This document shows positions 783 through 36,812 of a DNA stretch of 36,940 nt, piece after piece. The first letter of the stretch is position 1; each line of letters opens with the position of its first letter. Source of the stretch: Bacilli bacterium (lineage in GTDB: Bacteria; Bacillota_I; Bacilli_A; RFN20; CAG-826); contig JAILRR010000097.1 of assembly GCA_024698065.1 (NCBI GenBank), forward strand, positions 1 through 36,940. The letters run 5' to 3'. The position numbers were made by a program, and so were the translations under genes. The notes under the pieces were generated by a model, which was not told where the DNA came from, did not search any database, and saw only the letters and a program-made list of their open reading frames with translations.

Positions 783-808
783 GTTGTCTTATCTTCATAT
801 AATCTGTT

Positions 809-857: not shown

Positions 858-898
858 GTTAGAAAAACAACGTAAACATAAAAAACGTGCCAGAACTA

Positions 899-1445: not shown

Positions 1446-1480
1446 TGACTTTGTTGTCAGCAAACTAAAGGCGAAACATC

Positions 1481-3694: not shown

Positions 3695-3765
3695 AATCCA
3701 TATGAGATTAAACCAAGAATACGCCTTCGATCTTAGTTGGCGCATTAAATGGTAAGTCAGCAGAC

Positions 3766-5055: not shown

Positions 5056-5087
5056 AATAGAATTTTTGGTAGTGTAGAGAGTTTATA

Positions 5088-5615: not shown

Positions 5616-5681
5616 AGGCTTTTTATTTGCCTTCTCTTTCGTTCTTTCACATACTCTTATTGGAAAGACCGGAATGCAGGC

Positions 5682-6479
5682 ATGAAAAGAAATAGATTTT
5701 TCGGTAAATATTACAAGTTCATCAGTGATGATTCTTCTTTTTCTTTTGCGGTTATCATAAGTACCGCTAACGAAGGTGATATGCTTCAAGTCATAACATC
5801 TCATAAAGCGTTCCTCATCAATAACACTAAATCAGTAGAGGTCAAAGGAAGCATAATCACCTTCGATATCAATCAAGATGATCTTGTGATCAAAGGGGAA
5901 TTAACACTTGGAGAACTTCATCCACTTAAGAAGAAAGTGATGGGTCCATTCACATATCTCCCAATGGAATGTAGGCATGAGATATATTCCATGTACCATG
6001 AATTGAAGGGAACACTTCTGATTAATGGCAAAGAAGTATATTTCAACAAAGGCAGGGGATATATCGAAGGTGACAGTGGCACTAACTTCCCAAAGAAATA
6101 TGTTTGGTATAACAGTGTCACCGAAGATATAACCGCGACCTTCGCTTTAGCGAGCATCCCTCTTTTCGGTTTCATCCATTTCACTGGGATCCTTTGCTTC
6201 ATAAAGACAAAGGACAAGGAATACAGGCTCTGCACATATAATGGAGCAAAGCTAAAGAAGATCTCCGAAGACGAAATCATCATCAAGAAAGGGAAGTATT
6301 CCTTTGTCCTTAATATCAAGAATGAAGGAGGACATCTCCTTAAAGCACCGGTGAAAGGTGATATGGTGAGGTACATAAAGGAAAACCTTAATGTACCAAC
6401 CTCATTCAGACTCTTGAAAAAGGATGAGACTCTTATAGAAGTGAATGATCCTATATCGTCACTCGAATATATGTGGTGA
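5682..6479 (+). CDS. tocopherol-cyclase-like family protein (bacterial homologue of unknown function)
   Basis: N-terminal FFGKYYKF (compare FEGWYFK) and GYIEGDSGTNFPKKYVWYNS (compare GYxEKDWGxSFPxxWxWxQxN), recalled from the tocopherol cyclase family. Codon style is closer to the core genes. Confidence 0.5.
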   Translation: MKRNRFFGKYYKFISDDSSFSFAVIISTANEGDMLQVITSHKAFLINNTKSVEVKGSIITFDINQDDLVIKGELTLGELHPLKKKVMGPFTYLPMECRHEIYSMYHELKGTLLINGKEVYFNKGRGYIEGDSGTNFPKKYVWYNSVTEDITATFALASIPLFGFIHFTGILCFIKTKDKEYRLCTYNGAKLKKISEDEIIIKKGKYSFVLNIKNEGGHLLKAPVKGDMVRYIKENLNVPTSFRLLKKDETLIEVNDPISSLEYMW

Positions 6480-6670
6480 CACTGGCTGTTTTCAATAAAG
6501 CTTTCGCTTCTTTTGAGTCTGTTAACCAGGTTATTAATTCGTTTTAACTGAAATTTAACAACAAACTATGCCTCTATTTTCTTAATTAGGTATAATTAAG
6601 GGGATTGCTAGACATTTCTAGATAGAAAACGCTGTTATCTCTAAACATTTGAAAAAGGAAAAAAATACAT

Positions 6671-8948: not shown

Positions 8949-9132
8949 GCATTTCGTGTCCTGAAAAGCTTTTTAGAGAACCTCTCACCCTTTATATCCT
9001 TAATATTAATATATTCATTCTATGTAAAAATTTGTTACCGCAACTACTATTTACATTCCTTTTGCCAAGAAAAACCTGTAGAATATCGTTAATTGAGTAA
9101 ATTGCAACCTAGAGTTGACGAGGGAAACAGCT

Positions 9133-10773
9133 ATGACAATTGCAGAAAAATTAATCCATCTCAGGATGAATGCCTCTTTGTCCCAACTTGATTTGGCCAA
9201 TGCTCTCAAAGTGAGCCGCCAATCAGTCTCCAAATGGGAAAAAGGCGAATGCGTTCCATCCCTCGACAAAGCCTTAGAGCTTTGCTCTCTTTTCAAGATC
9301 AGCATCGATGAACTCGTCAATGAGTCCATCGTCATCAACAAAAAGGAATCCAAGAAAGAAGAAGTGCCAGAAGAAGGGAATCATTATTTCGGCACTGACG
9401 GCTTTAGAGGCGAATCGAACAAAAACCTCACCGTCATGCACGCTTTCCAGACTGGAAGATTCCTTGGCTGGTATTTCAACCAACCTCAGTTCGCTAAGCT
9501 CCATGCTGGGCAAGAGAGACCGAGGATCTGCATCGGCAAAGACACAAGAAGGTCCTCATACATGTTTGAGTACGCTTTATGCGCAGGTATCACTAGCAGT
9601 GGCGCCGATGCCTATATCCTCCATGTCACCACGACCCCAAGTGTCTCTTATATCACTAGAAGCGAGCACTTCGACTGTGGTGTCATGATCACCGCCTCCC
9701 ATAACATCTTCTACGATAACGGAATCAAGGTTCTTAACCACAATGGCGAGAAGATGGAAGACGATGTCGCCCATTTGATTGAATGCTATATCGACAAGAA
9801 GTTCGACAAGCTTGGACTTCCTGGTGCGACAGACCTTCCATATGCCGAGCGAGAGAACATCGGCAAAGTCATCGACTTCGAAGAAGGAAGAGCGAGATAC
9901 ACCGGTTACCTTATTTCAACTATCCCAACCTCATTTAGAGGTTTGAGGATCGCTCTTGATACCGCTAACGGCGCTTCCTGGGCCATCGCCCCTCAGGTCT
10001 TCAAGACCTTAGGCGCCGATATCACCGTCATCGGTGATGAGCCAAATGGCCTTAACACCAACAAAGACTGCGGCTCAACCCATATCGAGAAACTCGTCGA
10101 ACTCGTCAAAGAAGGCAAGTTCGATGTCGGATTCGCTTTCGATGGCGATGCCGATAGATGCTTAGCCGTCGACAAAGACGGTTCCCTCATCGATGGCGAC
10201 AAGATCATGTATATCCTTGGTCTTAGACTCAAGAGACATAGAACGCTCAAGAATGATGTCGTTGTCTCAACCATCATGTCTAACAGCGGTTTCGCCAAAG
10301 CTCTTGAGGATGTTGGCATCAAAACCGTCCAGACCGCAGTCGGTGACAGATTCGTCTATGAAGAGATGATGAAAAATGATTACTGGATCGGTGGAGAACA
10401 AAGCGGTCACATCATCCTCAGAAAATACCAGAATACAGGTGATGGCATCTTGACTGCTCTCAAACTCACAGAAGAGATGCTCGATACTAAAAAATCCTTA
10501 GGAGAGCTTTCTAGTGCCGTCCACGAATTCCCACAACAGCTTGAGAACGTTCGCGTCATTGACAAGAAAGCCGTCCTCGCTGACAAAGAGATTGTTGAGA
10601 AAGTCGAGAAGATCAACAAAGAGATCAAAGGCAAAGGCCGTATCCTTCTCCGTGAAAGTGGAACCGAGCCAGTCGTCCGTATCATGCTTGAGTCCGATGA
10701 CAAAGAGATGAACCAAAGATACATCGACACCATCAAGGCCATGATCAAAAAGGGAGGATACATCGGTGAGTAA
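9133..10773 (+). CDS. glmM: phosphoglucosamine mutase with an N-terminal XRE-family helix-turn-helix domain (fusion)
   Basis: The ATG at 9133 has GAGGGA 7 nt upstream, whereas the track start at 9115 is a TTG. aa 1-60 is HTH_XRE-like (LSQLDLANALKVSRQSVSKWEKGECVPSLDKALELCSLFKISIDELV). This is followed by GlmM motifs YFGTDGFRG, ITASHNIFYDNGIK, FDGDADR, GGEQSGH and RESGTEPVVR. Confidence 0.85.
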   Translation: MTIAEKLIHLRMNASLSQLDLANALKVSRQSVSKWEKGECVPSLDKALELCSLFKISIDELVNESIVINKKESKKEEVPEEGNHYFGTDGFRGESNKNLTVMHAFQTGRFLGWYFNQPQFAKLHAGQERPRICIGKDTRRSSYMFEYALCAGITSSGADAYILHVTTTPSVSYITRSEHFDCGVMITASHNIFYDNGIKVLNHNGEKMEDDVAHLIECYIDKKFDKLGLPGATDLPYAERENIGKVIDFEEGRARYTGYLISTIPTSFRGLRIALDTANGASWAIAPQVFKTLGADITVIGDEPNGLNTNKDCGSTHIEKLVELVKEGKFDVGFAFDGDADRCLAVDKDGSLIDGDKIMYILGLRLKRHRTLKNDVVVSTIMSNSGFAKALEDVGIKTVQTAVGDRFVYEEMMKNDYWIGGEQSGHIILRKYQNTGDGILTALKLTEEMLDTKKSLGELSSAVHEFPQQLENVRVIDKKAVLADKEIVEKVEKINKEIKGKGRILLRESGTEPVVRIMLESDDKEMNQRYIDTIKAMIKKGGYIGE

Positions 10774-13726: not shown

Positions 13727-14152
13727 TCATGAGACGTAATAAAAAAGGCTTAGATCTTTGACGGCAATATCGTCGAAATCAACGAATTGAGTGCATTCAA
13801 AATCATAGAAGAAGGAGTTGATATAATATGCCCCGGTGCCTCCCAACACTCTTGATAAATCGGGGTTGAGCAATCTATCGTAAGTCGCGGTTTCCCCTCT
13901 TCTTATGATTGGTTCTCCATTTTTGACGGTGAACGTGGTGTCGAACCTCGCGCCTTCGGGAATATTCGTTTGTCTATTCATAAAAACTTCATAGACATAC
14001 ATCGTGGACTCGCCTTCGTATGAGGTTGCGGCAACGCTTTCGAAAGAAGAGGAAGATTCGCTTTTTAAAAGGCCGGACTCTTCCGCAACACTAGGGGCGG
14101 GGGCGCATGCTGAAAGGATTGCCGACGTTGCAATCAATAGTGCCTTTTTCAT
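13727..14152 (-). CDS. lipoprotein of unknown function
   Basis: I chose the ATG at 14152 (MKKALLIATSAILSAC, lipobox LSAC) with GAAGGAA upstream. The track start at 14185 adds 11 residues that do not look like signal peptide. Confidence 0.65.
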   Translation of the reverse strand: MKKALLIATSAILSACAPAPSVAEESGLLKSESSSSFESVAATSYEGESTMYVYEVFMNRQTNIPEGARFDTTFTVKNGEPIIRRGETATYDRLLNPDLSRVLGGTGAYYINSFFYDFECTQFVDFDDIAVKDLSLFYYVS

Positions 14153-14203
14153 TTTTTTGTTCCTTCTTTCTTGAATAACGTTCATTGATTTGTTGTTTTT
14201 TTG

Positions 14204-14231
14204 TAAAAGAGGCGAGTTTGAGCTCGCCTCT
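14204..14231 (-). terminator. hairpin downstream of the lipoprotein paralogue array
   Basis: AGAGGCGAG (14208-14216)/CTCGCCTCT (14223-14231), a 9-bp stem. The U-run on the minus strand is short (TTTTAC). Confidence 0.4.
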
Positions 14232-14246
14232 CCTTCTTTGCCGTTG

Positions 14247-14879
14247 TTAGTATTCGACTCCGCCCCACTCAGTGACGGTGAATCCGGTTCTTTCGTAATG
14301 GGTCAAGGTTTGTTCCTTAATTGGAGTCTCTTCACTCACTTTCTTGATGTGAATAAGGGTTCGGATCATTGAAGTAGGCTCAATTGAGAATGATAGAGGA
14401 CACTCCTCATTTCTCTCTTCGGTCTGCTCGAAGTAGACAAGGGACTTCTCATTGTTCTCAAGGATCGGGAGCCAGTACATGATGAACTCATCGACTTCCT
14501 TGTTCGTATAGCCGATGAAATCCATCTTCTCCTCTAAGAAGGATATCGCGTTCTCTTTGGTGACATAGAATCCTTCATCAAAGTCACAGCTGTAGTTAGA
14601 GATCTCATCGAAATACAAGGCGTAATACTCTCTATCGTTTCCAGGGAGAGTGAATGTTCCATCTTCCTTGAGATGGATGTTCCAACCGTCCTCATACTTA
14701 GGGTAGGTGGTTACGAGCCTCTCATCTTGGAGGTATGTGACCTCAAGATCCATCTCTTCATCAGGGTAGAAGTAGATGATTGGCTTTCTACTCATTGGTC
14801 CTGAAGATTTGTCTTTGCAGTTTGTGCAACCTCCTAGTACGATCCCAAATAAAGCCAACAATAGAAACTGTTTCTTCAT
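14247..14879 (-). CDS. lipoprotein, tandem paralogue 1 (unknown family ending TEWGGxEY)
   Basis: ATG at 14879 (MKKQFLLLALFGIVLGGC, lipobox). Conserved core: KPIIYFYPDEEMDLEVTY...YPKYEDGWNIHLKEDGTFT...EFIMYWLPILENNEKSLVYFEQTEERNEECPL...FTVTEWGGVEY. Confidence 0.8.
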   Translation of the reverse strand: MKKQFLLLALFGIVLGGCTNCKDKSSGPMSRKPIIYFYPDEEMDLEVTYLQDERLVTTYPKYEDGWNIHLKEDGTFTLPGNDREYYALYFDEISNYSCDFDEGFYVTKENAISFLEEKMDFIGYTNKEVDEFIMYWLPILENNEKSLVYFEQTEERNEECPLSFSIEPTSMIRTLIHIKKVSEETPIKEQTLTHYERTGFTVTEWGGVEY

Positions 14880-14896
14880 GGTTGTTTTTTCCTTTT

Positions 14897-15595
14897 TTAA
14901 TATTCTGTTCCGCCCCACTCGGTGACGGTGAATCCGCTTCTATTGTAGTGAATTAGGCTCTGTTCTTGAATATCAGTTTCTTCATCTACTTTCTTGATAT
15001 GGATGATTGTCCTTATGAGAGTGTCCGGAGCAACGGAGAATCCTAATGGGCATTCCTCGTTTCTTTCCTCGGTCTGCTCAAAGTAGACAAGGGACTTCTC
15101 ATTGTTTTCAAGGATAGGGAGCCAATACATGATGAATTCATCGCTCTCTCTATCTGTGTATCCGATGAAATCCATCTTTTCTTCTAGGAAAGATATCGCG
15201 TTCTCTTTGGTGACGTAGAAACCTTCAGTGAAATCGCACACATAGTTAGGAGCCTCATCGAAGAAGAGCGCGTAATATTCTCTGCCACTCGTTCTGGTTG
15301 TGAAAGTCCCATCTTCTTTGAGGTGAATGTTCCAGCCATCCTCATACTTAGGGTAGGTGGTCATCAGCCTTTCTTCGTTGAAGTAGGCGACAGTCAAGTC
15401 CATCTCTTCCTCAGGGTAGAAGTAGATGACCGGTTTCTTCACTACCTGACGGGAACTTGAATGGTTCCCATTCGGATGGTGTTCCTCCTCTTCGATGCAT
15501 GTGCATTGAGCGGAACCGTCCTCAGTTTCTGGCTGAGCTTTGCAGCCCGTAAGCAAAAAGGCAAACAAAGGGAATAAAAGAATGTGTCGTTTCAT
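14897..15595 (-). CDS. lipoprotein, tandem paralogue 2
   Basis: ATG at 15595 (MKRHILLFPLFAFLLTGC) with GGAGGAG upstream. The core is near-identical to paralogue 1 at both protein and nucleotide level. Confidence 0.8.
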   Translation of the reverse strand: MKRHILLFPLFAFLLTGCKAQPETEDGSAQCTCIEEEEHHPNGNHSSSRQVVKKPVIYFYPEEEMDLTVAYFNEERLMTTYPKYEDGWNIHLKEDGTFTTRTSGREYYALFFDEAPNYVCDFTEGFYVTKENAISFLEEKMDFIGYTDRESDEFIMYWLPILENNEKSLVYFEQTEERNEECPLGFSVAPDTLIRTIIHIKKVDEETDIQEQSLIHYNRSGFTVTEWGGTEY

Positions 15596-15653
15596 ATGTT
15601 TCCGCTCCTCCAGAAAATAAGACGATTGGCTGAGCGGAAATCGCTCAAAAGGG

Positions 15654-16499
15654 TCAGTATCTTGTTCCGCCCCACTCAGTGATTGTGAAACCATTTCTGT
15701 CATAATGGGTCAATTGCTCTGGAGCGATGCTCACTGGCCCATCAACGGCCTTAATGTGGATCATCGTTCTGATGAGGGTGTCTGGCTCAGTCGAGAAAGT
15801 GATAGGGAACTCGTTATTGCATTCCTCGGTCTGCTCAAAGTAGACAAGAGACTCTTCATTGCTCTCAAGGACAGGGAGCCAATACATGATGAACTCATCG
15901 GCCTCACGGTTTGTGAATCCCATATAATCGAGCTTCTCTTCTAAGAAGGACATGGCCATGTCACTCGTGACATAGAAGCCTTCATCGAAGGAACAGATAT
16001 ATTCGGAATTGGCTTCGTAATATAAAGCGTAATATTCTCTTGGGCTTCCTGGGACGGTTAAAGTGCCATCCTGAGCGATATGGATATTCCATCCTCCATC
16101 ATATTCAGGATATGTTGTCGTAAGAAGATCGTCCCTGACCACAGTGACAGTCATATCCATCTCTTCCTCAGGGTAGAAGTAGATGATTGGCTTAGCCATT
16201 TTAGGCTCTGAGTACGGTTCCTTAGAAGAGTCTTTTGAACTCTTCTTTTCTGTTGAGGGGACGAAAGGATTAGGCGGTATGGTGATTTTGGAATGGCTGC
16301 TTTCTTCTAGGAACGATGAAGAGTCCTCTTCCGAAGACGAAGAGTGAAGAGATGTTATTGGGTTATTTCCTCCAGTGCCCCTGGTGGTTAAGATCTCACC
16401 TTGGCTACTGCTAGAAGTCTTTCGAATGTCTTTTTGCGTTCCAACGCACCCCGATAAGAGAAGGGCTATTAAGGGTAGTAATGCAGCTTGTTTTTTCAT
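15654..16499 (-). CDS. lipoprotein, tandem paralogue 3, with a Ser-rich low-complexity linker
   Basis: MKKQAALLPLIALLLSGC lipobox, AGGAGAA RBS, an SSSS/EEDSSS linker, then the same conserved core ending FTITEWGGTRY. Confidence 0.8.
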   Translation of the reverse strand: MKKQAALLPLIALLLSGCVGTQKDIRKTSSSSQGEILTTRGTGGNNPITSLHSSSSEEDSSSFLEESSHSKITIPPNPFVPSTEKKSSKDSSKEPYSEPKMAKPIIYFYPEEEMDMTVTVVRDDLLTTTYPEYDGGWNIHIAQDGTLTVPGSPREYYALYYEANSEYICSFDEGFYVTSDMAMSFLEEKLDYMGFTNREADEFIMYWLPVLESNEESLVYFEQTEECNNEFPITFSTEPDTLIRTMIHIKAVDGPVSIAPEQLTHYDRNGFTITEWGGTRY

Positions 16500-16688: not shown

Positions 16689-17906
16689 ATGAAAAAAGCA
16701 TTTATCTCAAACCGTTCCAAATCCTCCCTCAACAAACATGACATTTTGACAATCTCCGGTCTTGCTAACAAAGACACTAAGAAAGGTTTCAAAACCATCA
16801 ACGCCTCCGTCGGAGCCTATTACGACGAAAAGAAGAAGTTTGGAAGGGTCCCAACGATTGAGAACGCCATCAAAGAGAAATTCTCCGAGAAGATGGCCTA
16901 TGCTTCAGTCACGGGATATGAGGAATATAAGAAAGGCATCTTGAGTTACGCTTTCGGGGAAAGACTTAAGACCATAAAAGAGAAGAATGAGACCTTCTTT
17001 GGTGCGACTTTGGGCGGAACCGGAGCCCTTTCGATCGCTTTCAATTTGTTCACCGATGAAGATAGCGAGGTCTTGCTCCCAGATGTCATGTGGTCAAACT
17101 ACAAGCTCATCGCCAGCAAGGCGCATTGCTCATATAGAACATACAAGCTCTTTGATGAATCCGATAACTGGAACCTTAGCAGCATCAAAGAAGAAGTCGA
17201 TCGTGAGATCACGAGAAAAGGCAGAGCCCTTCTTCTCATCAACGACCCATGTGAGAACCCAACCGGTTACAGCATGTCCAAAAAAGAATACGAAGACCTT
17301 TTCGCCTACCTTAACAAGAAAGGCGAAGAAGGTTCCCTCATCGTCGCCTTCGATATCGCTTATTACAACTTCTCAAGCGGGGAATGTCCTCTCTTTGAGA
17401 TGCTTGAAGGGGAACTTAACTTCCTTCCAATCATCGTCTTCTCTTGCTCCAAATCGTTTGCCATCTACGGCTTTAGATGCGGCGCCTTCATCGCCCTTTG
17501 CCCAGACAAAGAAAGCAAAGAAGATATCGGCAATGCTTTCAGAGCCCAAGTTAGAGGCACCGTCTCTTCCCCAGTCGGCCCAGTCCTTCATTCCGTTGGC
17601 GAGACTCTCCTCGACGAAGAAAAGGTCAAGGAAGTCGCTAAGGAAATCAATGTCAACAAGATGGCCCTCGTCGAAAGAGGAAATTACCTTACTTCCCTTC
17701 TTGATGAAGCGGGCATCAAACATTACCCATACAAATCAGGCTTCTTCCTCACCCTTAAGGTTGAGAATGCCGTCGCCACTTTCGACGCTTTAGCGGGCAA
17801 GCATATTTATGTCGTCCCAATCGACGAAGATAAGGTCAGAATCGCCCTCTCTGGCATCACCACGACTGAGTGCAAAGAACTCGTCGACGCATTGAAATCG
17901 CTTTAA
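16689..17906 (+). CDS. class I (AspC/TyrB-type) aspartate/aromatic amino acid aminotransferase
   Basis: INASVGAYYDEKKKFGRVPTIENA N-terminal pattern and the PLP-lysine motif SCSKSFAIYGFRCG. 405 aa. Confidence 0.85.
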   Translation: MKKAFISNRSKSSLNKHDILTISGLANKDTKKGFKTINASVGAYYDEKKKFGRVPTIENAIKEKFSEKMAYASVTGYEEYKKGILSYAFGERLKTIKEKNETFFGATLGGTGALSIAFNLFTDEDSEVLLPDVMWSNYKLIASKAHCSYRTYKLFDESDNWNLSSIKEEVDREITRKGRALLLINDPCENPTGYSMSKKEYEDLFAYLNKKGEEGSLIVAFDIAYYNFSSGECPLFEMLEGELNFLPIIVFSCSKSFAIYGFRCGAFIALCPDKESKEDIGNAFRAQVRGTVSSPVGPVLHSVGETLLDEEKVKEVAKEINVNKMALVERGNYLTSLLDEAGIKHYPYKSGFFLTLKVENAVATFDALAGKHIYVVPIDEDKVRIALSGITTTECKELVDALKSL

Positions 17907-17961: not shown

Positions 17962-19152
17962 ATGGATCCATTTGTTCTTATAGCCATCATCGTCGGTTCC
18001 TTAGCAGCGCTAGGTATCCTTCTTTTCGTTATCTCCCTTATCATTAAAAAGAGAGCGAAGAAAGAAGTGGACCCTAACGAAGAGATGGCCATCGCTTTCA
18101 AAGAGATCCCCGCTTTAGACGAGGAAGATGAAAAGAGACTCGTCGAAGTCAAAGACAAAGAACTCATCAAAAGGATCAATGTCAGCGTCCCTGGCGCTTT
18201 AAAAGCGGTCGCAGGCGCAGATATCTCTAGCGCGATAGGGGAAGTCACCGGCTCAGGAAGCGTCTTCCAGGCTGTTATCCCTGCCGTCAGCAAAAGTGAG
18301 ACCGTTGTCACTAGTACCGCGGTTCTTTCATCAAGCGCTGCCGACAAATTTAGCCGTGTCACCGCTTTAAGCGCGGCTAATGCCGCAATGGGTGTCGCCT
18401 CGATGGTCGTTGGTCAGTATTTCATGTCGCTCATTGACGCAAAGCTCAAGGACCTTGGCTCAACGATTGAGAAAATCACTTCTTTCCAGCAAAGCGAATT
18501 CCGTAGCAAGGTGTACGCTCTTGTCGCGGAGACCCAAAAGATCAGCACCTTCCAGGTAGAGACTCTTGAGAACCATGAGCTTAGAGCAAGAGAGCTCTCT
18601 CATCTTCGTTCCTTGGAACATGAATGCGTTGAGCTTCTTGGTCAGGCCAATCTTTCTCTTCAAGAAATCTCTAGCAAGCGTGAACCTGACTTCAAATCAT
18701 ATGAAGCCGCTATATCTCAAGCAGAAAGTTGGTACGACTACCAACAGATTCTTCTTAAGGTCATCAAAGAGATATCTGACCTCACATATGTTTTGAACCT
18801 AGGCGCCTTGTCGAGAGAGAACTGCAACGCTCTTTCGATCCCATACACCAAGCAATCCGAAGAAAGCCTCCTCAAACTCAAAGGCTGGCATGAAGAGAAT
18901 ACGAAACGCTTAGGAGTCAATCTCGAAGAGAGCAAAGTCAAAAGAAGTGGTCTCAAAGGCGTGCTCATGAAGCCTCTTGGCCTCATCAACAAGAACCTCA
19001 ATTACAAAGAAGTCTCTTCGACCACCATCAAGAACATCGAAAGACAAAGTGGCATCGAGGCCAAAGAAGATGTCGTTGAAAGTGACCTCTATAAAGAAGA
19101 CGTCACTCTCATTGCCAAAGACGGCAAATATTATTACCTTCCAAAGAAATAA
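17962..19152 (+). CDS. membrane-anchored protein of unknown function (396 aa)
   Basis: N-terminal TM (FVLIAIIVGSLAALGILLFVISLII) followed by KKRAKKE, a second hydrophobic stretch (AANAAMGVASMVVGQYFMSLI), then a long helical region. Core-like C-ending codons. Confidence 0.7.
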   Translation: MDPFVLIAIIVGSLAALGILLFVISLIIKKRAKKEVDPNEEMAIAFKEIPALDEEDEKRLVEVKDKELIKRINVSVPGALKAVAGADISSAIGEVTGSGSVFQAVIPAVSKSETVVTSTAVLSSSAADKFSRVTALSAANAAMGVASMVVGQYFMSLIDAKLKDLGSTIEKITSFQQSEFRSKVYALVAETQKISTFQVETLENHELRARELSHLRSLEHECVELLGQANLSLQEISSKREPDFKSYEAAISQAESWYDYQQILLKVIKEISDLTYVLNLGALSRENCNALSIPYTKQSEESLLKLKGWHEENTKRLGVNLEESKVKRSGLKGVLMKPLGLINKNLNYKEVSSTTIKNIERQSGIEAKEDVVESDLYKEDVTLIAKDGKYYYLPKK

Positions 19153-19153
19153 A

Positions 19154-19191
19154 AAATGTCCCCGTTTCCGAGGACATTTTCTTTTTTTTTT
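19154..19191. terminator. bidirectional intrinsic terminator
   Basis: AAATGTCC (19154-19161)/GGACATTT (19172-19179) followed by a long T-run, with an A-run upstream. It could serve the plus-strand gene and, ancestrally, guaA from the other side. Confidence 0.75.
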
Positions 19192-19196: not shown

Positions 19197-19255
19197 TTAT
19201 TCGAACTCGATGGTCGAAGTTGGTTTGTCAGTCGCATCGAAGAGGACGCGGTTGA
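19197..19255 (-). repeat. displaced copy of the last 18 codons plus stop of guaA (att-like direct repeat, left)
   Basis: 59 nt identical to 25010-25068 except for 2 positions (19209 G vs A, 19230 A vs G), both synonymous in the guaA frame (...NRVLFDATDKPTSTIEFE*). Similarity continues about 11 nt into the 3-prime UTR (TTTTGCTTTTT). Confidence 0.9.
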
Positions 19256-19466
19256 GGAAACAAGGCGATGTTTTCTTAACACACATCGCAACGTCTTGAT
19301 GCAACTGTCGTGATTTCGTCAAAGTCTCAAAAGAAATCACTTGGAAACACAATAATTGAAAGATTTTGCCTAATGCAAAATCCAATTGGTCCGGATAGAT
19401 AACGCATTTAATCATCATTGATTTTTTTTCAATAAAAAATTATCGTAAAAAAAGGTGGTAAAACGA

Positions 19467-21644
19467 ATGAAAAATTTTCTAGTTACATTGATTGTCTTCT
19501 CCTTGCTTTCGAGCGCGAATTTACACATTGAAAAGAAGACAAATCGAATCAACAACGATTACGAGGCCTGCCTTAAAGCTGAGACTCCAGAGAAATCTAT
19601 GCTTGATGCACAGCATGTTCCCGGTGAGCTCATTGTCACGGTGGATGCCAAAACCAGTCGCGACGTCATTTGTGGAACTAAGAAATCGGAGGAATTAATT
19701 GAAGACTTCAACTGCGATGAATACGAATGTCTTTCTCAAGAATTGATAGACTCTAGATGTTCTTTGAGCGTCAACCGAGATATTCATGTGTCATATTTGA
19801 TTCGCTATGAGGATAAAACGGATGAACATTTGTATGATGCTTTATGCAATATTAAGAAAAACAGCTCGGTTGATGCAGTCGAACCGAATTACATTCGTTT
19901 GAGCAATTCTGTCGATAATCCAGTTGACGAGTATTATTCAGAACAATGGGGATTAAGAGCGATAAACGCTCCTGCTGTTTGGCATAGATATGGAACGGGT
20001 TCGTACGAAAAAACGCGCATTGGGATTCTAGACGATGGTGTATCTCCACACGAGGACTTGTGTATTGACGCTTCTTTAAGCCGTGACTTTTCGGCTGGCG
20101 GGGATAGGTACGGCATTGGGCATGGCACTCATGTCGCCGGAATCTGTGGAGCAATTGGCGATAACACCAAGATAGAAGGAGGTGTTGAAAGCGGCGTTGG
20201 TGTTGTTGGTGTTTGCCAAAAAGCAACGGTCGTTGATTTAAAGGTCGCCAGCAAGGTATGGATTAAAGACAATACCATACCTGCAGGAGGCTATTATAGC
20301 GATCGTTCAAGCGATTCGACGGTACTTAAAGCAGTAAATTATGCGATTTCGAAATGGGAAACGTCTCAGCGTATTTCTGTCTTGAATTATTCGTATTCTG
20401 GATACTCCAATAAATATGTCACTCTTTTTGGCGATTTCACAGTAAGAAACCCAGTAAATAGAAACATCCTTTTGTCATTTAGATCGTTCCCTGGAACGGT
20501 TGTCTGGAGCGCTGGTAATGATGGAGAGGCTCGTGGGGATAATGGTTTTAGGTACTGCCCTAATTTGATTTCTGTCGGTTCGATAGACGAAACTGGAGAG
20601 ATAAGTGGTTTTTCTAATTGGGGGCCGTCGGTAAACATTTATGCCCCTGGCGGGAATATCTTTAGCACATTCAGAGACAACCAATATGTGGCGAAAAACG
20701 GCACTTCGATGGCCGCTCCGTTTGTTTCCGGTGTCGCCGCTTACCTTTATTCTAAGTTTCCCGGCATCACAGCAAGACAGGTAAAAGATGCCATAGTGGA
20801 GTCTGTTAATTACGAAAAAGTTATCCATGCTGGCAATGGAATATTGGAACCGATTAAGAAACTTGATTTTTTGGCAGCATACAATAAGGCCTATGGGTTG
20901 TTTAACGAAACCGATAATTATCCAATAAAACTTGAAATGCTTAACTGCGAGGGCGACAAGTGGAAAATACTAATTCAAAATACTGGCAAAAGCACTTTGA
21001 AAATCGCATATCCGGAATCCAACTGTTCGGAACAGGATGTTACCGTGTTTTCATCAAACAATTGCAAAACACTCTCCTTGAGTGGCAAATCATCAAAAAC
21101 CATAGAAATAACATATGACAAAAATAAGGGGATGTGTTTTCCTGTTGGCGTTTACTCAAACGGCGTCAGGAAAATAACCTATCTTTATTGTTCTTCTGTG
21201 GCTTGGAACGTCGACACTGATTTCCTACTCTTTGATATGAATTACACAACAAGCTCTGTGCCAGGAAAACACCTTAACAGGGCTCCACAACCTGGTTTGG
21301 ATTTTGAGATAAAGTCATCGAGAATCAACTGGTTTGTAAGGGATTGGAAAATAACGATCAAAAACAACATTAACGTGGCTGTCGATGTGATGTACAACAG
21401 CAAGATGTGTTTTTATGGCGACGGGCTTGACTGGAAGAATCTTGCCGACGTTGAACAAATGTCTCTTTCTTCATACGGAACCTCATCGGAAATATGGATT
21501 AATGCTAATGGCACGGCGGATGCTATCGCCATGTGTCTTGTCTATATCGATGATTACGGTCTTAAAAGAGGATATGTTTCCGTTGCCAATGGTATCAAAG
21601 ACAATGGGCATGGTACACTTGGTCATAAGACGATCTCTCTTTAA
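19467..21644 (+). CDS. secreted subtilisin-like (S8) serine protease with two C-terminal repeat domains
   Basis: I chose the ATG at 19467 (MKNFLVTLIVFSLLSSANL signal peptide) with AAAGGTGG upstream. Catalytic motifs are IGILDDGV (Asp), HGTHVAGI (His), SAGNDG (oxyanion Asn) and GTSMAAPFVSG (Ser). Two related C-terminal modules of about 110 aa carry KWKILIQNTG and DWKITIKNNI. Confidence 0.85.
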   Translation: MKNFLVTLIVFSLLSSANLHIEKKTNRINNDYEACLKAETPEKSMLDAQHVPGELIVTVDAKTSRDVICGTKKSEELIEDFNCDEYECLSQELIDSRCSLSVNRDIHVSYLIRYEDKTDEHLYDALCNIKKNSSVDAVEPNYIRLSNSVDNPVDEYYSEQWGLRAINAPAVWHRYGTGSYEKTRIGILDDGVSPHEDLCIDASLSRDFSAGGDRYGIGHGTHVAGICGAIGDNTKIEGGVESGVGVVGVCQKATVVDLKVASKVWIKDNTIPAGGYYSDRSSDSTVLKAVNYAISKWETSQRISVLNYSYSGYSNKYVTLFGDFTVRNPVNRNILLSFRSFPGTVVWSAGNDGEARGDNGFRYCPNLISVGSIDETGEISGFSNWGPSVNIYAPGGNIFSTFRDNQYVAKNGTSMAAPFVSGVAAYLYSKFPGITARQVKDAIVESVNYEKVIHAGNGILEPIKKLDFLAAYNKAYGLFNETDNYPIKLEMLNCEGDKWKILIQNTGKSTLKIAYPESNCSEQDVTVFSSNNCKTLSLSGKSSKTIEITYDKNKGMCFPVGVYSNGVRKITYLYCSSVAWNVDTDFLLFDMNYTTSSVPGKHLNRAPQPGLDFEIKSSRINWFVRDWKITIKNNINVAVDVMYNSKMCFYGDGLDWKNLADVEQMSLSSYGTSSEIWINANGTADAIAMCLVYIDDYGLKRGYVSVANGIKDNGHGTLGHKTISL

Positions 21645-21662
21645 GGTGAAAACCAAGTTCCT

Positions 21663-24600
21663 ATGTTCATACTACGAAATCTTATAAAAGAATATCCGGG
21701 TGGAAGGGGCAACCGACCAATTGTTGCCCTTAACATCGGCTATTTGTCTCTTCCTGAATCGGGAATGGTTTTCGTCGTTGGGAAATCGGGCAGTGGCAAA
21801 TCCACTTTGCTCCATCTCCTTGGCGGCCTAGACAAGCCAACTAGCGGCGATTTGCTTATTCATGGTAAAAATGCCTCTTCCTTTTCGGAAAGGGATTTAG
21901 ATAGCTATCGCAACTCATGTGTCGGCTTCGTTTTTCAAGATTTTGGCTTGATTGATGAATTTACAGTGCGACAAAACATTGGGTTTGCTCTAGAACTGCA
22001 AAGCGAGAAAAGTGACGAAGAAAAGATCGCGAGCGTCCTCAATTCCTTGGAAATGCCTGGTTTTGATGATAGGCGCATCGATACATTGTCTGGCGGCCAA
22101 AAACAAAGAGTCGCCATAGCTAGGGCCCTCGTCAAAAACCCTTCCGTCATTTTGGCTGATGAACCAACTGGCGCATTGGATGAAGAAAGTGGCAACGGCG
22201 TTCTTTCGATTCTTAGAAAACTCAGCAAAGAGAAACTTGTGGTCATCGTAAGCCATGATACGGAGGCGGCCAGAAAATACGCTGACAGAATTATCGAGCT
22301 CAAAGACGGCAGAATTGTCAAAGATACTGTCGATAGCGAAGAGAAAGAAGCGGACGAAGAACGTGCCAACCTTACACTTCGCAAATCGAGAATCCCTTTT
22401 CTCAAAGGATTAAAAATCGGTCTTTCAGCCGCGATCCATAAACCGCTTAAACTGGTTACCTGCTCCATGCTTGTCGCCTTTGCTTTGTCTTTCTTTGGGC
22501 TTGTCACAACGCTGACCTTTTTCGATGATGCAAGAGCAAGGACGGGCGTAGCTACGACGATGCATTGCGAAAGCGACTTGTTTCAGAAAAATGCCATTTT
22601 TGAGGTAACGAATTCGGAATACGATTACCGAAGTGGACAAACGGTGAAAAGTGAAAAAACAACTGAGACCGCAGGTGTGATGAGCAGTGACCAAGATGTA
22701 GCGAAGTTAAACGCCTCCTCCAAAACTGGCTTGGATTTTGCGGGAGTTTTCGGAAAAGACCTCTATTCTTTTCAGTACAAAAACGGCAGTGACCTAGAAG
22801 ACCCTCTCGTGTTTGATCAACTGCATTCATTCCTTTCTTTTTCTGGTTTTATCGATTGCGGAGAGACTTACCTTGCAAGAAATGGAATGTCCATGCTGTT
22901 TGGAACATATCCAACCGCGTCAAATGAAATTGCTATTTCCAAATACCATAGCGAGATACTTGCTAAATCAAATCCCGAACTCTTTGATGGCGAAATAAAA
23001 AACGTTATAGGAACCGAATTATCCATCGATTTTAAAAATTACACTTTGAATAGCGACAAATCTCTTTTCACCATTACTGGCATCGTCGATACCGGTGAGG
23101 TCAACAATTATTACCTTGAACGCTACGAAAAGGGGAATCATACGCTCGATAGCAAGGACATAGAAATGCTTACTGAGTATCTAAGGGGTTCATTCCATTG
23201 CCTCGGTTACGTTTCTTCTGTTTTTGCCGAGACGTTCCATGACGTTTTTGCTGAAGGTCTCTCGTCGCTTTATTCGCATAAAGGCGTCTATTTTGCCGGT
23301 ATTGAATTAGAAGAAAACGAAAGCAGCATAAGACCAAGCGCCGATAGTTCACTTGGATTCGTCTTACCAAAATACACGGACATGGAACAATATAGTTTCT
23401 ACGCGCCCGATGGTGAATCCCTCACATTCGAAGAACCAGCGTCCAATGAGATTTATGTGGATGGCAGCTACTATGAAGAGAAAACCTACCGTAAGCTTAA
23501 GGATTTCTTGCTAAGCGTTTTTGTCTGCGTTCATGATGCTTTTTTTGAGTACAAAATGCTGCCTGAGGCTGATAGTTATTTTGCAAGTACCGAAAACCTC
23601 GCCTTCTTCAATCATGCTTTATCACTATTCGAAAGTTTTGATTTGGATTCCTTCGAGTTGGCTATAAAGAGTGATCGATTCGAAAACAATGTGAAATTGG
23701 TAATCAACAGTTTTGCCAAATTGTCGTTCGAGCGAATGTACATCAAATATGTTTTGGCGAGCATGAACTCTCTCAACGCAAGCGGTCATTTTGGTATCGA
23801 GGACCTTTCTTTGGATTCTGAATTTATGTCCCAGTATGGTCTTAAGGTTGATAACTGTGGCCTTTCCGAGGAGTTTGATTCAGAGGTATTTGATGGCTGT
23901 TACGAATACATTAAAAGTCATCCAAGTCTGCGGCTTTTCGCCAGAAAAGCTCTTTGTTATGAACTTTTCTTATCGCTCGACAAATCCAATACTTACAAGG
24001 ACATTTATGAAAAAGTGAGCCTTATGGTTCTAAATGGAAACGGAGACGCCGTGTCACAATCTGATTGGGACGACCTTCTTTCGGCTTTTGATTCGCTTTG
24101 TTCTGACGAGGAAAACCTTGAGTTTATAGAAATGCCTTTTGCCAAAAATAATCTTGTGGATTATGAGAGGGCATATTCCGACAGGCCTTTTGAATACTCG
24201 ATTGAGTGTCCACATGACCTTTTCTACGTCAACCATCTTGGGGTGAAGGGAAAGCTTACCGTAAAAGGCTATTACCTAACAAGCGGCAGGAAGGATGGGG
24301 GCGCTCAATTATATTTCGCGAATGAAGATTTCCTGAGGAGTCTGACTATCGCACCTAGCTATGTCAACACAAAAACATATTCGACTGATTATAAAGACGT
24401 CGATGGTGGTAAATACAATTATGTGATCACCAAGACGGATTTTAGTTTTAGGCAAGTAAAAGAAATCTGCATGAAAGGGGAAGGCTTTGAATATAGGTTC
24501 ACAAACGCCTTGATGTATAGGGTTGACTATTTCATAACCGTCATGTGGACCATGTGTATGGTTTTTGCCATATTGGCTGGAGTCCTTGGCTTTTTCGCGG

Positions 24601-24953
24601 TTCTGTTGCTAGCTACTTTTATTGCTTCTTCCGTAGATTACAAGAAGAAGGAAGTCGGCATTATAAGGTGCCTAGGCGGAAGAGAAAAAGACGTATTCTT
24701 GATCTTTGCTTCCGAAGGCATGGTAATCACTATGGCATCCGTCATCTTGTCGGTTGTGCTTTCCCTAATTGAATGCTTCTTCATCAACCGTTTTGCCTTT
24801 GGAGAGACCTTTGGCGCGAATTTGCTCTATTATGGTCCGCTAAATGTGCTGACGGTCTTGATTTGCTCGATCGTTATTGCCTCGCTTGCTACTTTCCTTC
24901 CGATCCACAAAAGAACGAAAATGGCACCTTCTGTCGCCTTACGTAAGGAATAA
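21663..24953 (+). CDS. fused ABC ATPase / FtsX-type permease (MacB/FtsEX architecture) with an unusually large extracytoplasmic domain
   Basis: GKSGSGKST, LSGGQKQRVAIARAL, ILADEPTGALD and VSHD in aa 1-220. TM1 is near aa 262-287. About 665 non-hydrophobic residues follow. Then three C-terminal TMs (from about aa 956) with an FtsX-like layout. Confidence 0.85.
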   Translation: MFILRNLIKEYPGGRGNRPIVALNIGYLSLPESGMVFVVGKSGSGKSTLLHLLGGLDKPTSGDLLIHGKNASSFSERDLDSYRNSCVGFVFQDFGLIDEFTVRQNIGFALELQSEKSDEEKIASVLNSLEMPGFDDRRIDTLSGGQKQRVAIARALVKNPSVILADEPTGALDEESGNGVLSILRKLSKEKLVVIVSHDTEAARKYADRIIELKDGRIVKDTVDSEEKEADEERANLTLRKSRIPFLKGLKIGLSAAIHKPLKLVTCSMLVAFALSFFGLVTTLTFFDDARARTGVATTMHCESDLFQKNAIFEVTNSEYDYRSGQTVKSEKTTETAGVMSSDQDVAKLNASSKTGLDFAGVFGKDLYSFQYKNGSDLEDPLVFDQLHSFLSFSGFIDCGETYLARNGMSMLFGTYPTASNEIAISKYHSEILAKSNPELFDGEIKNVIGTELSIDFKNYTLNSDKSLFTITGIVDTGEVNNYYLERYEKGNHTLDSKDIEMLTEYLRGSFHCLGYVSSVFAETFHDVFAEGLSSLYSHKGVYFAGIELEENESSIRPSADSSLGFVLPKYTDMEQYSFYAPDGESLTFEEPASNEIYVDGSYYEEKTYRKLKDFLLSVFVCVHDAFFEYKMLPEADSYFASTENLAFFNHALSLFESFDLDSFELAIKSDRFENNVKLVINSFAKLSFERMYIKYVLASMNSLNASGHFGIEDLSLDSEFMSQYGLKVDNCGLSEEFDSEVFDGCYEYIKSHPSLRLFARKALCYELFLSLDKSNTYKDIYEKVSLMVLNGNGDAVSQSDWDDLLSAFDSLCSDEENLEFIEMPFAKNNLVDYERAYSDRPFEYSIECPHDLFYVNHLGVKGKLTVKGYYLTSGRKDGGAQLYFANEDFLRSLTIAPSYVNTKTYSTDYKDVDGGKYNYVITKTDFSFRQVKEICMKGEGFEYRFTNALMYRVDYFITVMWTMCMVFAILAGVLGFFAVLLLATFIASSVDYKKKEVGIIRCLGGREKDVFLIFASEGMVITMASVILSVVLSLIECFFINRFAFGETFGANLLYYGPLNVLTVLICSIVIASLATFLPIHKRTKMAPSVALRKE

Positions 24954-24966
24954 AGTTGGCACAAAG

Positions 24967-25000
24967 AAAAGCGGCCTACGAAGAAGCCGCTTTTTGTTTT
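24967..25000. terminator. bidirectional terminator shared by the ABC gene and guaA
   Basis: AAGCGGC (24969-24975)/GCCGCTT (24986-24992) followed by TTTTTGTTTT, with an A-rich stretch upstream. Confidence 0.7.
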
Positions 25001-25009
25001 GCTTTTTTC

Positions 25010-25068
25010 TTATTCGAACTCAATGGTCGAAGTTGGTTTGTCGGTCGCATCGAAGAGGACGCGGTTGA
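25010..25068 (-). repeat. guaA 3-prime end copy within the functional gene (att-like direct repeat, right)
   Basis: Partner of 19197-19255 (57/59 identical). Confidence 0.9.
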
Positions 25069-26330: not shown

Positions 26331-27470
26331 TTATGGCCTCCAGTAGTTAGAACTCTCTTTTTCAAGGGTGACATCGTGAGGATGGCTCTCCTTGAGAGAT
26401 GATGAAGTGATGCGGAGGAATTTGGCTTCCTTCTGAAGGGTTTCGAGGTCTTTGGCACCTTCATAACCCATACCTGCGCGGAGACCGCCAAGAAGTTCGA
26501 AGATGACGTCAGAGGCTGAGCCTTTGCAAGGGACAAGGGCCTCAACGCCTTCGGCGACGAGTTTCTTATGTGGGTCTTGGAAGTAACGGTCACTAGAACC
26601 ATTGGCCTGTGCCATGGCGGCTAAAGAGCCCATGCCACGGTACTGCTTATATTTCTTGCCATTGATGATGACGGTGTTGCCAGGAGCCTCGGCAGTGGAA
26701 CCGAAGATGGCACCGAGCATGACTGAGTCAGCGCCAGCGACGATGGCTTTGACGATATCGCCTGAGTAGCGGATGCCGCCATCGGCGATGAGAGGGATTT
26801 TATGTTCTTTGCAAGCTTTGGAGCATTCCATGATAGCGGTGATCTGTGGAACGCCCATACCGGAGATGACACGAGTGGTGCAGATGGAGCCAGGGCCCAT
26901 ACCGACCTTAATGGCGTCTGCGCCATTCTCGGCTAAGGTCTTGGCGCCTTCGTAAGTGGCGACGTTACCAGCGACGATATCGATGTTTGGGAAAGCTTTC
27001 TTGAGGTCCTTAAGGGCTTCAACGACGTTTTTGCTATGGCCATGTGCGCTATCGAGGATGAAGAAGTCGGCTCCCGCTGCGGCGAGGGCTTTCGCTCTTT
27101 CGAGTTTCTCAGCCTTGATGCCAAGAGAGGCACCGACGATGAGTTTGCCATTCTTATCTAAGTTGGCGTTTGGATATTCTTCTAAAGAAACGAGTGTGTC
27201 CTTGACCATCTTGATCTCGGCTGCTTGGGCTTCGATCGACATATTCTTATGGATGACGCCGACTCCGCCGTTTTCGGCAAGGGCGATCGCCATTTCGTGT
27301 TCGGTGACGGTGTCCATGGCGGCACTCATCAAAGGAACGTTGAGGGTGAGATTTCTAGTGAGGCGGGTTTTTAGCGACACCATGTCAGGTGTGATTTCGC
27401 TATACCTAGGGATGAGGAGAACATCATCGAATGTAAGGCCGAAGCCTACGATTTTGTCGTCAAATTGCAT
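26331..27470 (-). CDS. guaB: IMP dehydrogenase lacking the CBS/Bateman subdomain
   Basis: [10 protein letters not shown], catalytic [32 protein letters not shown] and ESHPHDV. 379 aa. Only about 19 residues lie between KMVK and LIVGASLG, where CBS pairs normally sit. AGGAGG RBS. Confidence 0.9.
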
Positions 27471-35180: not shown

Positions 35181-35291
35181 ATATTGGTTCGATTAGCGCT
35201 ACATAATACCAAAACTGTTAAGGATATTGACTTGCTCGCAATTTTTTATCGTTTCCTCAGTTGTTTTCAAAAGAAGGGATCAAGAGAAACA

Positions 35292-36812
35292 ATGAAAAAC
35301 AAAAAGAAGACGAGACGCATGGCGGCCTGGACCGCTTTCATGCTGCCCATCATGGTGATGGGGGCGGGGCGCATCGCCGCCGAAAGTGAGAACGATGCTC
35401 GAACGGAGGCTTCATTCATTCAAAAAGAAGAAGCCTGTGCTGCGGCAGGTCCGTCATCCTACTTCACTGGCTATGCCGCCGAAGAGGTTGACTATTATGA
35501 GCAGCCGAATTTCGTGAGGGACTACTTCAGGAACCTTGTCGAGCATTTCCCGACGAACAACTGCGGCAACTGCGGGTACACCGCCGCGGCGATGCTCCTT
35601 TGCTACTACGACACGTATTGGAATGGGAAGATAATCCCTGACCAGTTCAACAGCAGGCCATCCTACATCAATGACGTCAAGGATGACAAATACTCATCCC
35701 CAGGCATTGAGGACTATGCCGCCCCGATCTATTTGGACGAAAACGTGAAGAAACCTGATGAGAACTCCGACAAGAGCGAGATACTTAAGTATAACGCCTA
35801 TCTCGTTGATAAAGTCTATGGGCCGTATCTCAACGAGATGCTAAAACCTGAGATTCTTAAATTCAACCTAATCTCATATCTATATGATTTGGCTCTTGGC
35901 AACAATAAATCCGGAACGGTCTTATGGGATTTCGGTATCTATCAGCCTACCACCAAGACGAATATGGGCATGGTACGAGACCTGTTAAATCTCTATTTCG
36001 ATGAATTGGGTCTAGCGGGCCAAATAAAGGCAACAAGAGTTCACTATACAGATTTCAAAGATCCTTTTGGAGACCCGTCGCTTCCGAAGGGCCGAGAAAG
36101 ATTTCAAAAGCATTTACTTAGAGCGAAGGCGATAGAAAAACTCACGGAAGGGCAGCCAATTATATATAGGGGTAACCTAGCGAAAGACCCGACCGAATAC
36201 AGCAAAGACCAAGTCAATGTCAACGGCAATGGCCACGCAGCGATAGCTTACGATTATGATGAAGACAATAATCGAATAATCGGGCATATTGGCTGGAAGG
36301 GCGAAAAGGAATACAGCATGCTAGTCTTCGAGAAATCGTTTGATGATTTCACGGATATTATTTACCTTGAGGTAGATCCGTGCTTGAAATTCGACCATGG
36401 CAACGTCCGCTTCGACGCCAATGGCCATGACGCATTGGCATGCGATCTGCATTCGCATAAGCATGCCGATGACGACCGCCGCGCGAAGGTGAGCTACGGT
36501 GACCCCGAGTACCATGCCCTCCAGTGCATCTGCGGGGATGTGACATACGAGGAGCATTGCCACGATGCCATTGAGCCTTTCGACTCGCAGAATCACATAT
36601 TGAAATGCGCGTGCGGCGATGTTAGATATGAGGGGCACACCAAGGACGAGACCGTCTGGTACGACGGGCTCAGGCATGCCTATAAGTGCCATTGCGGCCA
36701 GATAGTCGGGACGGCCCCGCATCTCTATGTCCAGCAAGGGCTCACGAGGCTCGTGTGCAAAGGGTGCGGCGACGTCCGGCAGATCGACCCGCCGTTCATA
36801 TTAAACCCATGA
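35292..36812 (+). CDS. secreted papain-like cysteine peptidase (C39-like/C47-like fold) with C-terminal Cys/His repeat modules
   Basis: I chose the ATG at 35292 (MKNKKKTRRMAAWTAFMLPIMVMGAGRIAAE signal peptide). NNCGNCGYTAAAMLLCYYD supplies the nucleophile context and NGNGHAAIAYDYD the His context. The C-terminus has 3-4 modules of H-x-[LY]-x-C-x-CG-[DQ]-[VI]...H. Confidence 0.65.
   Translation: MKNKKKTRRMAAWTAFMLPIMVMGAGRIAAESENDARTEASFIQKEEACAAAGPSSYFTGYAAEEVDYYEQPNFVRDYFRNLVEHFPTNNCGNCGYTAAAMLLCYYDTYWNGKIIPDQFNSRPSYINDVKDDKYSSPGIEDYAAPIYLDENVKKPDENSDKSEILKYNAYLVDKVYGPYLNEMLKPEILKFNLISYLYDLALGNNKSGTVLWDFGIYQPTTKTNMGMVRDLLNLYFDELGLAGQIKATRVHYTDFKDPFGDPSLPKGRERFQKHLLRAKAIEKLTEGQPIIYRGNLAKDPTEYSKDQVNVNGNGHAAIAYDYDEDNNRIIGHIGWKGEKEYSMLVFEKSFDDFTDIIYLEVDPCLKFDHGNVRFDANGHDALACDLHSHKHADDDRRAKVSYGDPEYHALQCICGDVTYEEHCHDAIEPFDSQNHILKCACGDVRYEGHTKDETVWYDGLRHAYKCHCGQIVGTAPHLYVQQGLTRLVCKGCGDVRQIDPPFILNP

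Follow-up and report, generated by a model that had tools for sequence, protein, structure and literature searches.

A two-gene islet bracketed by duplicated guaA ends at a variable site in rumen Bacilli, and a proposed route of gain and loss without a recombinase

The 36,940-nt stretch of DNA analyzed here (the window: contig JAILRR010000097.1 of assembly GCA_024698065.1, positions 1 to 36,940, from a Bacilli bacterium) carries, at the 3′ end of the GMP synthase gene guaA, an insert of ~5.8 kb that lies between two copies of the last 59 nt of that gene and consists of two genes, one for an S8 protease and one for an ABC/FtsX fusion. Our preferred reading, of middling confidence, is that this insert is a recombinase-free accessory islet at a hot spot of recombination where guaA faces a convergent aminotransferase gene, that it entered by a Campbell-type event and that it can be lost through recombination between its repeats. 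The parts of the arrangement, in window coordinates, are the following.

17962–19152, plus strand: gene for a 396-aa protein with no family match, a second variable occupant of the hot spot
19151–19182, both strands: old bidirectional terminator hairpin from a terminator scan (folds of -19.1 and -11.8 kcal/mol)
19197–19255, minus strand: left (distal) guaA-tail copy including the stop codon, the displaced original, adjoining the ancestral terminator and matching the right copy at 57/59 positions
19256–19454, plus strand: non-coding stretch 5′ of the protease gene, in two parts split at 19417/19418
19455–21644, plus strand: cargo gene 1, S8 protease (Pfam Peptidase_S8, 8.7e-35), with a likely ATG start at 19467
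21663–24953, plus strand: cargo gene 2, fused ATPase-permease ABC transporter of the MacB/FtsX type (Pfam ABC_tran, 7.7e-32; FtsX, 1.4e-10)
24967–24994, both strands: new bidirectional terminator, which came with the cassette (folds of -18.0 kcal/mol on both strands)
25010–25068, minus strand: right (proximal) repeat copy, the real 3′ end of functional guaA
25010–26326, minus strand: guaA, the target gene, for a GMP synthase of 438 aa (Pfam GMP_synt_C; NCBIfam PRK00074, 5.7e-153)
26331–27470: guaB, upstream of guaA

The two copies form by far the longest direct repeat between 17000 and 28000, the next ones being at most 29 nt long and at most 81% identical, and beyond the 59 nt an A-rich similarity runs on to 19178/24991 (78 nt, 88%). 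Read on the minus strand, the two mismatches are ATC/ATT (Ile) at 19209/25022 and ACT/ACC (Thr) at 19230/25043, both synonymous third-codon positions; alignment thus bore out an earlier note on this DNA, which had described the repeats in these terms. The left copy closes a 73-codon open reading frame (ORF) that is GuaA-like only in its last 18–19 residues (the last 18 by Pfam), and it has 0 private substitutions in its 59 nt relative to full-length guaA sequences. Each copy is followed by its own strong hairpin, the old or the new terminator, with T runs on both strands. Non-coding DNA in the insert amounts to 199 nt and 56 nt only, which leaves no room for a recombinase, and we found none among its ORFs with Pfam, NCBIfam and PADLOC, in agreement with the earlier claim of two cargo genes without an integrase.

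That the duplicated tail was created by a mis-join or a collapsed repeat is extremely improbable. The contig is of a metagenome-type source and short-read contigs do break inside the repeat, but Logan contigs from independent runs and different studies (X1, X2 and X3) cross the unique/repeat junctions on both sides, at 19255/19256 and 25009/25010, and the structure is therefore not an assembly artifact. The same architecture recurs in independently assembled relatives (L075–L077, L021 and L069), and the copies can be told apart by their two mismatches and by their flanks. The artifact reading that the earlier note had allowed for was accordingly not upheld.

The non-coding stretch in front of the protease gene is composite. 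Similarity to the cassette of a related contig, L075, begins at 19418, so that 19418–19454, which contains the ribosome-binding region, is common to cassettes of that type, while 19256–19417 is private to the window lineage, has no match elsewhere and contains two 8-nt inverted repeats. One of these, 19310–19317/19333–19340, had been pointed out previously as sitting just inside the left end of the insert; it is indeed present, with a second at 19362/19375, but the background in the window is 0.18 per 200 nt, and the repeat is thus not significant alone. We also considered 19256–19417 as a decayed longer guaA fragment, as suggested by a MAFFT alignment and by a weak 12-residue match to GuaA (IYPDQLDFALGK versus IYPDRIESGMGK, E = 0.008), and dropped this candidate as unsupported: nucleotide local alignment of the stretch to guaA was no better than that of shuffles, and guaA-tail profiles (nhmmer, hmmsearch) gave no match once the 59 nt were masked. 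Because the profile searches find nothing in 19256–19417, the repeat boundary at 19255/19256 is sharp in the window. Rfam and tRNA searches for a target gave no matches in the window.

The host is an uncultured, Erysipelotrichaceae-like lineage of rumen Bacilli. Its closest relatives are uncultured rumen metagenome-assembled genomes (MAGs) labeled Bacilli or Erysipelotrichaceae, with GuaA 93–99% identical; exact-sequence look-ups of the GuaA and aminotransferase of the window returned nothing on record. In all of these closest relatives, guaB-guaA faces a convergent class I/II aminotransferase gene across a short and highly variable spacer. The site is empty in at least six related contigs (L004, L082 and L083–L086), where the guaA stop is followed by 44–56 nt with the old terminator, common there to guaA and its convergent neighbor, and then by the aminotransferase stop. 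The S8-ABC pair occupies the site in the window, L075–L077, L021, L069 and L055; a fast-evolving lipoprotein gene does so in L001, L006, L007 and L022, a two-ORF cassette in L019, a gene for a C39-like secreted protein in L002 and an IS3-family element in L003 and L005 (L005 and L020 being one contig). The 396-aa gene is found in the window, in L007 and, as a 401-aa gene, in the outgroup L087/88, and it is missing from most relatives. Cassettes occur in both orientations, and strain-level pairs of empty and occupied sites exist, for example L004 versus L001/L006.

These states indicate which copy of the tail is original. The outgroup order, 401-aa gene/old terminator/guaA, matches the window order, 396-aa gene/old terminator/59-nt tail, and the left copy is therefore the guaA tail that was there first, still in place. 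The old terminator, kept next to the guaA stop in L002, L004, L019, L082, L083 and L087, now serves the 396-aa gene in the window, and the new one ends both the ABC gene and the working guaA. Behind the guaA stop, every S8-ABC carrier (L021, L055, L069, L075 and L077) has the stem of the new terminator (GCGGC...GCCGC), there with a larger loop than in the window. The working tail and the new terminator thus came in together with the cassette. The earlier note had proposed just such an insertion, in which guaA receives a new end and terminator while its former end stays by the old terminator, and the uninterrupted guaA-stop/old terminator/neighbor order of L004 and L082–L086 agrees with it, as does the 401-aa gene order of L087/88. 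As a separate matter, we considered the old terminator as a dispersed repeat family behind the repeats of L019 and L002, and rejected this, as in 234 kb of related sequence it occurs at the guaA site only. The IS3-family element sits exactly in the old-terminator loop (L003, 6773–6902; L005/L020, 7484–7597); its end reads TGAACTGAACCCC... and its ORF starts MASKGQKFKKYSPEF, and the L003 and L005/L020 contigs stop soon after.

The hot-spot lipoprotein gene (L001, 11359–12198; L006, 8759–9595; L007, 9141–9935; L022, 1188–1973) is a mosaic: between L001 and L006 the promoter and signal-peptide end is conserved and the mature part is ~40–50% identical by eye, and in L007 the body matches L001 and the 5′ end is different. 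The L002 cassette (1871–3338) is a paralog, promoter region included, of the C39-like gene that lies ~10 kb away in the window (35184–36812), and at least one hot-spot cassette thus came from within the genome or from a close relative and not from a foreign source.

Comparing the flanking duplications across cassettes, we found that they differ in length and in position. In a sister lineage, L075–L077 and L055 have the same cassette with a distal guaA fragment of ~480 nt, a 138-aa ORF (GMP_synt_C, 4.5e-28) that covers guaA from codon ~246 through the stop codon, with 110 nt deleted from its interior; a contig from run X24 has the fragment without this deletion, at ~590 nt. The lipoprotein cassette of L001/L006 is flanked by 36 nt of the tail (31/36 identical), and the cassettes of L019 and L002 are flanked by 40-nt and ~33-nt repeats, respectively, that consist of old terminator alone and begin past the stop codon. 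No segment occurs in every flanking repeat at the guaA site and, with flanks of ~590 or ~480, 59 and 36 nt of tail or of terminator only, the duplication is not a fixed attachment site. The proximal junction (guaA stop/new terminator/ABC gene) is homologous between the window and L075 types; the distal junctions differ, with 59 nt followed by 162 unique nt in the window and ~480 nt followed by 41 nt in L075, and no microhomology or att-like feature was found at the distal junction. A synonymous tail haplotype, ACC TCA ACG ATT, is proximal in L001, distal in L006 and native in the empty-site contig L082, and from the swap between L001 and L006 it follows that the crossover position is not fixed.

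These comparisons bear on a possible though improbable alternative, close to what the earlier note had suggested, in which the islet is a cis-mobilizable element (CIME) or a decayed tyrosine-recombinase element in the guaA 3′ end that has lost its integrase and transfer genes, the repeats being attL and attR on which an integrase could act in trans. Such an element accounts for the exact layout, with the replacement tail and new terminator proximal and the original tail and old terminator distal, for the halt of homology at the stop codon and for the strain-level empty/occupied pairs. The guaA 3′ end is moreover a documented target, used by Tn5801 (PMC4844618) and by the tyrosine-recombinase islands GIsul2, ATE-1 and the Brucella IncP island (PMC5704250). 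Yet no integrase or recombinase, or recognizable remnant of one, was found at ~13 occupied related loci, and no integrase, relaxase or conjugation remnant at ~25 related loci, in a search confined to those loci. The tight packing of the two genes, with 199 + 56 nt of spacer, the repeats of 36, 59 and ~590 nt or terminator only with nothing in common and the varying position of the haplotype switch all speak against this alternative as well. We also looked for phage or plasmid carriers of the cassette and rejected them, the plasmid and phage matches being limited to the ABC ATPase motif, and the guaA tail was on no viral contig.

By formal description, a CIME has repeats that include the target end and lacks integration and transfer genes (PMC5704250). 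The window islet resembles the CIMEs of streptococci in this form only: the flanking repeats of the guaA tail and the missing integration and transfer genes stand. By contrast, CIME repeats are the att sites of a known family of integrative and conjugative or integrative and mobilizable elements, no member of which was found for the window clade at the ~25 related loci, and a fixed crossover core is expected, whereas the guaA-site repeats vary in length and position. The analogy with Tn5801 that had been drawn for the window fails. Tn5801 is ~25 kb long; it has a tyrosine integrase gene beside guaA, carries tet(M) together with Tn916-like modules for conjugation and regulation, and is flanked by 11-bp repeats (PMC4844618). 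The window insert, at 5.8 kb, carries two cargo genes and no recombinase, and its repeat is 59 nt long (up to ~590 nt in relatives). None of the integrase by guaA, the 11-bp core, the Tn916-like modules or tet(M) is present in the window, and what is shared with Tn5801 specifically is the target gene only. What Tn5801, GIsul2 and ATE-1 have in common with the window is the same target, the GMP synthase 3′ end, a guaA that is left intact and direct repeats that flank the insert.

The cassette and its surroundings differ in their divergence. L021 and L075 are 2.7% apart in the cassette and 7.9% in guaB-guaA, where the divergence is itself mosaic and peaks at 20% over 200 nt in the 3′ part of guaA. 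In trees built on 600–1800 columns of MAG contigs, carriers are not monophyletic for guaB-guaA, with non-carriers L003 and L005 at 3–5% from L075, and the aminotransferase tree conflicts with the guaAB tree. The window aminotransferase gene (16689–17906) is 15–21% from all relatives at the nucleotide level and the window guaB-guaA 7–12%, and since the flank divergences differ in this way, the hot spot is a recombination boundary between differently inherited flanks.

Between the window and L075, synonymous divergence (dS) is 0.82 for the S8 gene and 0.71 for the ABC gene, against 0.62 for the aminotransferase gene, 0.62 for guaA and 0.58 for guaB. By these values, the window and L075 cassettes are old with respect to one another, and the repeats look young beside them. 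Of the 481 bases in the L075 fragment, 9 are private, 3 at each codon position, as an unconstrained pseudogene would show, and the L055 fragment has 3; relative to its own full-length gene, the L075 fragment differs at 6/236 positions in the 3′ block and at 17/238 in the 5′ block. Lineage-specific variants are common to both copies within one genome. Two explanations fit such young repeats, a separate recent insertion in each lineage from diverged cassette variants or gene conversion, and either way recombination involving the repeats is continuing. A foreign donor origin of the working guaA tail was rejected, as the tail of the full-length L075 guaA matches the non-carrier L003 as closely as the remainder of that gene does, and we observed no raised diversity in the guaA 3′ end. 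The suggestion made earlier that the two copies descend from diverged host and donor alleles is weakened: it rests on two sites, and the left copy is without a private substitution. Because both copies share lineage variants, local duplication, recent recombination or gene conversion fits at least as well.

Other aspects of this record could be taken to mean that the islet is static and goes back to a single old illegitimate event (such as repair of a break, a template switch or partial tandem duplication of the guaA tail in which foreign DNA was trapped), inherited vertically or with its flanks, with gene conversion alone keeping the repeats alike and with neither a circle nor re-insertion. 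We consider this unlikely. The homologous proximal junction of the window and L075 types suggests a single origin, the dS of the cassette is about equal to that of the flanks, the distal junction is without microhomology or an att-like feature, and the lineage-specific variants held by both copies of a genome are as gene conversion would leave them. On the other hand, a flanking duplication of its own accompanies each of at least four different cassettes, so that repeated rare accidents would be needed; the cassette and core distances of L021 and L075 disagree; carriers are scattered on the core tree; and the window and L075 differ in their distal junctions.

We return to entry by a single crossover. 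A full gene with the incoming end and new terminator, then the insert, then a 5′-truncated tail with the old terminator is the product of one crossover between the chromosome and a circle that bears the tail. A site-specific integrase would give the same layout; host homologous recombination fits better because no recombinase was found, because repeat lengths, repeat positions and the switch point vary and because mosaicism is pervasive. In the mechanism that we propose, a DNA circle with a copy of the guaA tail beside the cassette would insert by a Campbell-type single crossover, catalyzed by the host system for homologous recombination rather than by a site-specific integrase of the element. 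After that, the islet may spread between lineages through ordinary homologous recombination in the conserved flanks, and it may be lost by recombination between the two tail copies, which would restore the guaA-terminator arrangement exactly; the similarity of the repeats would be maintained by gene conversion or by repeated re-insertion. With its repeat down to 59 nt, the window islet is now probably stable and only passively mobile.

One related contig is relevant to the circle. L055 (REGX01377897.1, 1–1495) reads ABC 3′ end/new terminator/guaA fragment with the 110-nt deletion/protease 5′ end, a circular permutation of the islet that would mark the junction of a circle or of tandem copies, unless the assembly is chimeric across the repeat. 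We also considered a stronger version of repeat-mediated turnover, which we regard as quite unlikely, in which the duplicated tail or terminator is the working attachment sequence of an integrase-independent cassette system: cassettes would loop out via their flanking repeats and re-insert by RecA-type single crossover, the repeat being both product and substrate. L055 would then be a circle or tandem junction, and the repeat lengths of 33 to ~590 nt would reflect the amount of target DNA that each cassette picked up.

Several points weigh against Campbell-type entry and repeat-mediated loss. Homologous crossover is inefficient on 33–59 nt. Both cassettes with tail flanks have a duplication that ends at the stop codon, which fits an element evolved for gene-end replacement, as site-specific elements are, better than it fits an arbitrary stretch of flanking DNA. 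The mechanism supplies no source for the first circle. No excised or circular form was shown with contigs from public runs, as the Logan (k-mer) contigs break at repeats and their depth is single-copy, and L055 is possibly a chimera formed via ~236 nt of repeat. The tree conflicts, finally, come from the alignments of 600–1800 columns of MAG contigs given above.

Among described systems, the minimal mobile elements (MMEs) of Neisseria, variable gene sets between fixed flanks that are exchanged by homologous recombination without a recombinase (PMC3787668, citing Saunders and Snyder 2002), offer a close parallel: as at the guaA site, the content differs between the same conserved genes in close relatives, and no recombinase was found. 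The conflicting distances and trees of the cassette, guaAB and the aminotransferase gene suggest that cassettes would likewise be exchanged there by homologous recombination in the flanks. Neisseria MMEs, however, are not described with duplications of neighboring gene ends, and several guaA-site cassettes have duplications of the gene end or terminator; the window islet thus behaves as a hot-spot islet or MME with the added feature of the duplications that bracket it. The arrangement also resembles that left by laboratory suicide plasmids of the Campbell type, a full gene plus a 5′-truncated copy plus the insert, in which repeats permit excision and amplification; those, however, are laboratory constructs, and the natural, recurrent small-cassette version is what we infer here. 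The prophages phage 21 and e14 in E. coli icd carry a long 3′ end of their target, so that the gene stays intact and the old tail becomes a pseudogene fragment. The L075-type fragment of ~590 nt matches this displaced-tail arrangement, although those prophages encode their own integrase and use a fixed crossover site. An integron cassette array (CALIN) was rejected: there is no IntI, the repeated hairpin is a local intrinsic terminator unique to the site, and the cassettes lie in both orientations.

Turning to the cargo, the protease has a signal-like N terminus, a subtilisin catalytic domain that matches subtilisin structures at 1e-21 and an extra C-terminal region of ~270 aa. The best NCBIfam and PDB matches of the ABC protein are to MacB, and its layout is MacB-like except for an unusually large domain (~670 aa) that separates TM1 from the FtsX domain. 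The composition of the cargo is foreign, with GC3 of 0.416 for the protease gene and 0.452 for the ABC gene versus 0.55–0.66 in core genes, and with codon-usage distances of 0.21–0.24 versus 0.06–0.15 for neighboring core genes; the earlier note had proposed this comparison of codon usage with the flanks. The two genes are always adjacent in relatives, and other lineages have the pair at two further, unrelated loci, one between a TMEM164-like gene and a DUF697 gene (L078/79) and one adjoining atpC (L080); at the L078/79 locus, the one of the two that was checked, no flanking repeats surround it. L078/79 and L087/88 come from the same two samples, and the guaA site of L087/88 is without the S8-ABC pair. 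Their divergence levels match, which suggests a single organism; if so, the genome of that lineage has the pair at another locus. The cargo is thus predicted to be a secreted subtilase and a MacB-type exporter that form a conserved pair moving between loci. A role as a defense system was considered and rejected, PADLOC giving generic subtilase and ATPase matches only.

We also noted features of the target operon and of the rest of the window. GuaA, at 438 aa, has an N-terminal glutamine amidotransferase domain ~80 residues short, in which the nucleophile Cys is replaced (ICYG to VTYG in an alignment to PDB 7sbc), and the enzyme is probably unable to use glutamine. The IMP dehydrogenase, at 379 aa, is shorter than usual, and Pfam reports the catalytic IMPDH domain only and no CBS domain; both lengths are common to relatives. 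Positions 1–6500 form a low-GC block of five genes (GC 0.35–0.39 versus 0.45–0.52; GC3 0.36–0.48), in which a 737-aa AAA_13 protein (1481–3694) matches the PADLOC candidate defense family PDC-S06 at 5e-240 and its neighbors are without a family match; this is probably a separate acquired defense islet upstream of capsule-type genes. At 9115–10773 lies a phosphoglucosamine-mutase-type gene with an N-terminal HTH_3 (XRE-type) DNA-binding domain, a fusion kept in relatives, and 13727–16499 (minus strand) holds three to four tandem paralogous lipoprotein-like genes with 70–84% nucleotide identity between copies, whose copy number and sequence vary among relatives.

If the islet did enter and turn over by host homologous recombination, gene-end duplications that resemble integrase footprints would arise and persist without a site-specific recombinase, which would counsel caution in naming such repeats att sites, or such islets CIMEs, by sequence alone. 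In these rumen Bacilli, a group of which little is known, the guaA/aminotransferase spacer is a well-defined hot spot with six or more alternative contents, and it could provide a natural system for the gain and loss of small accessory cassettes in uncultured gut bacteria.

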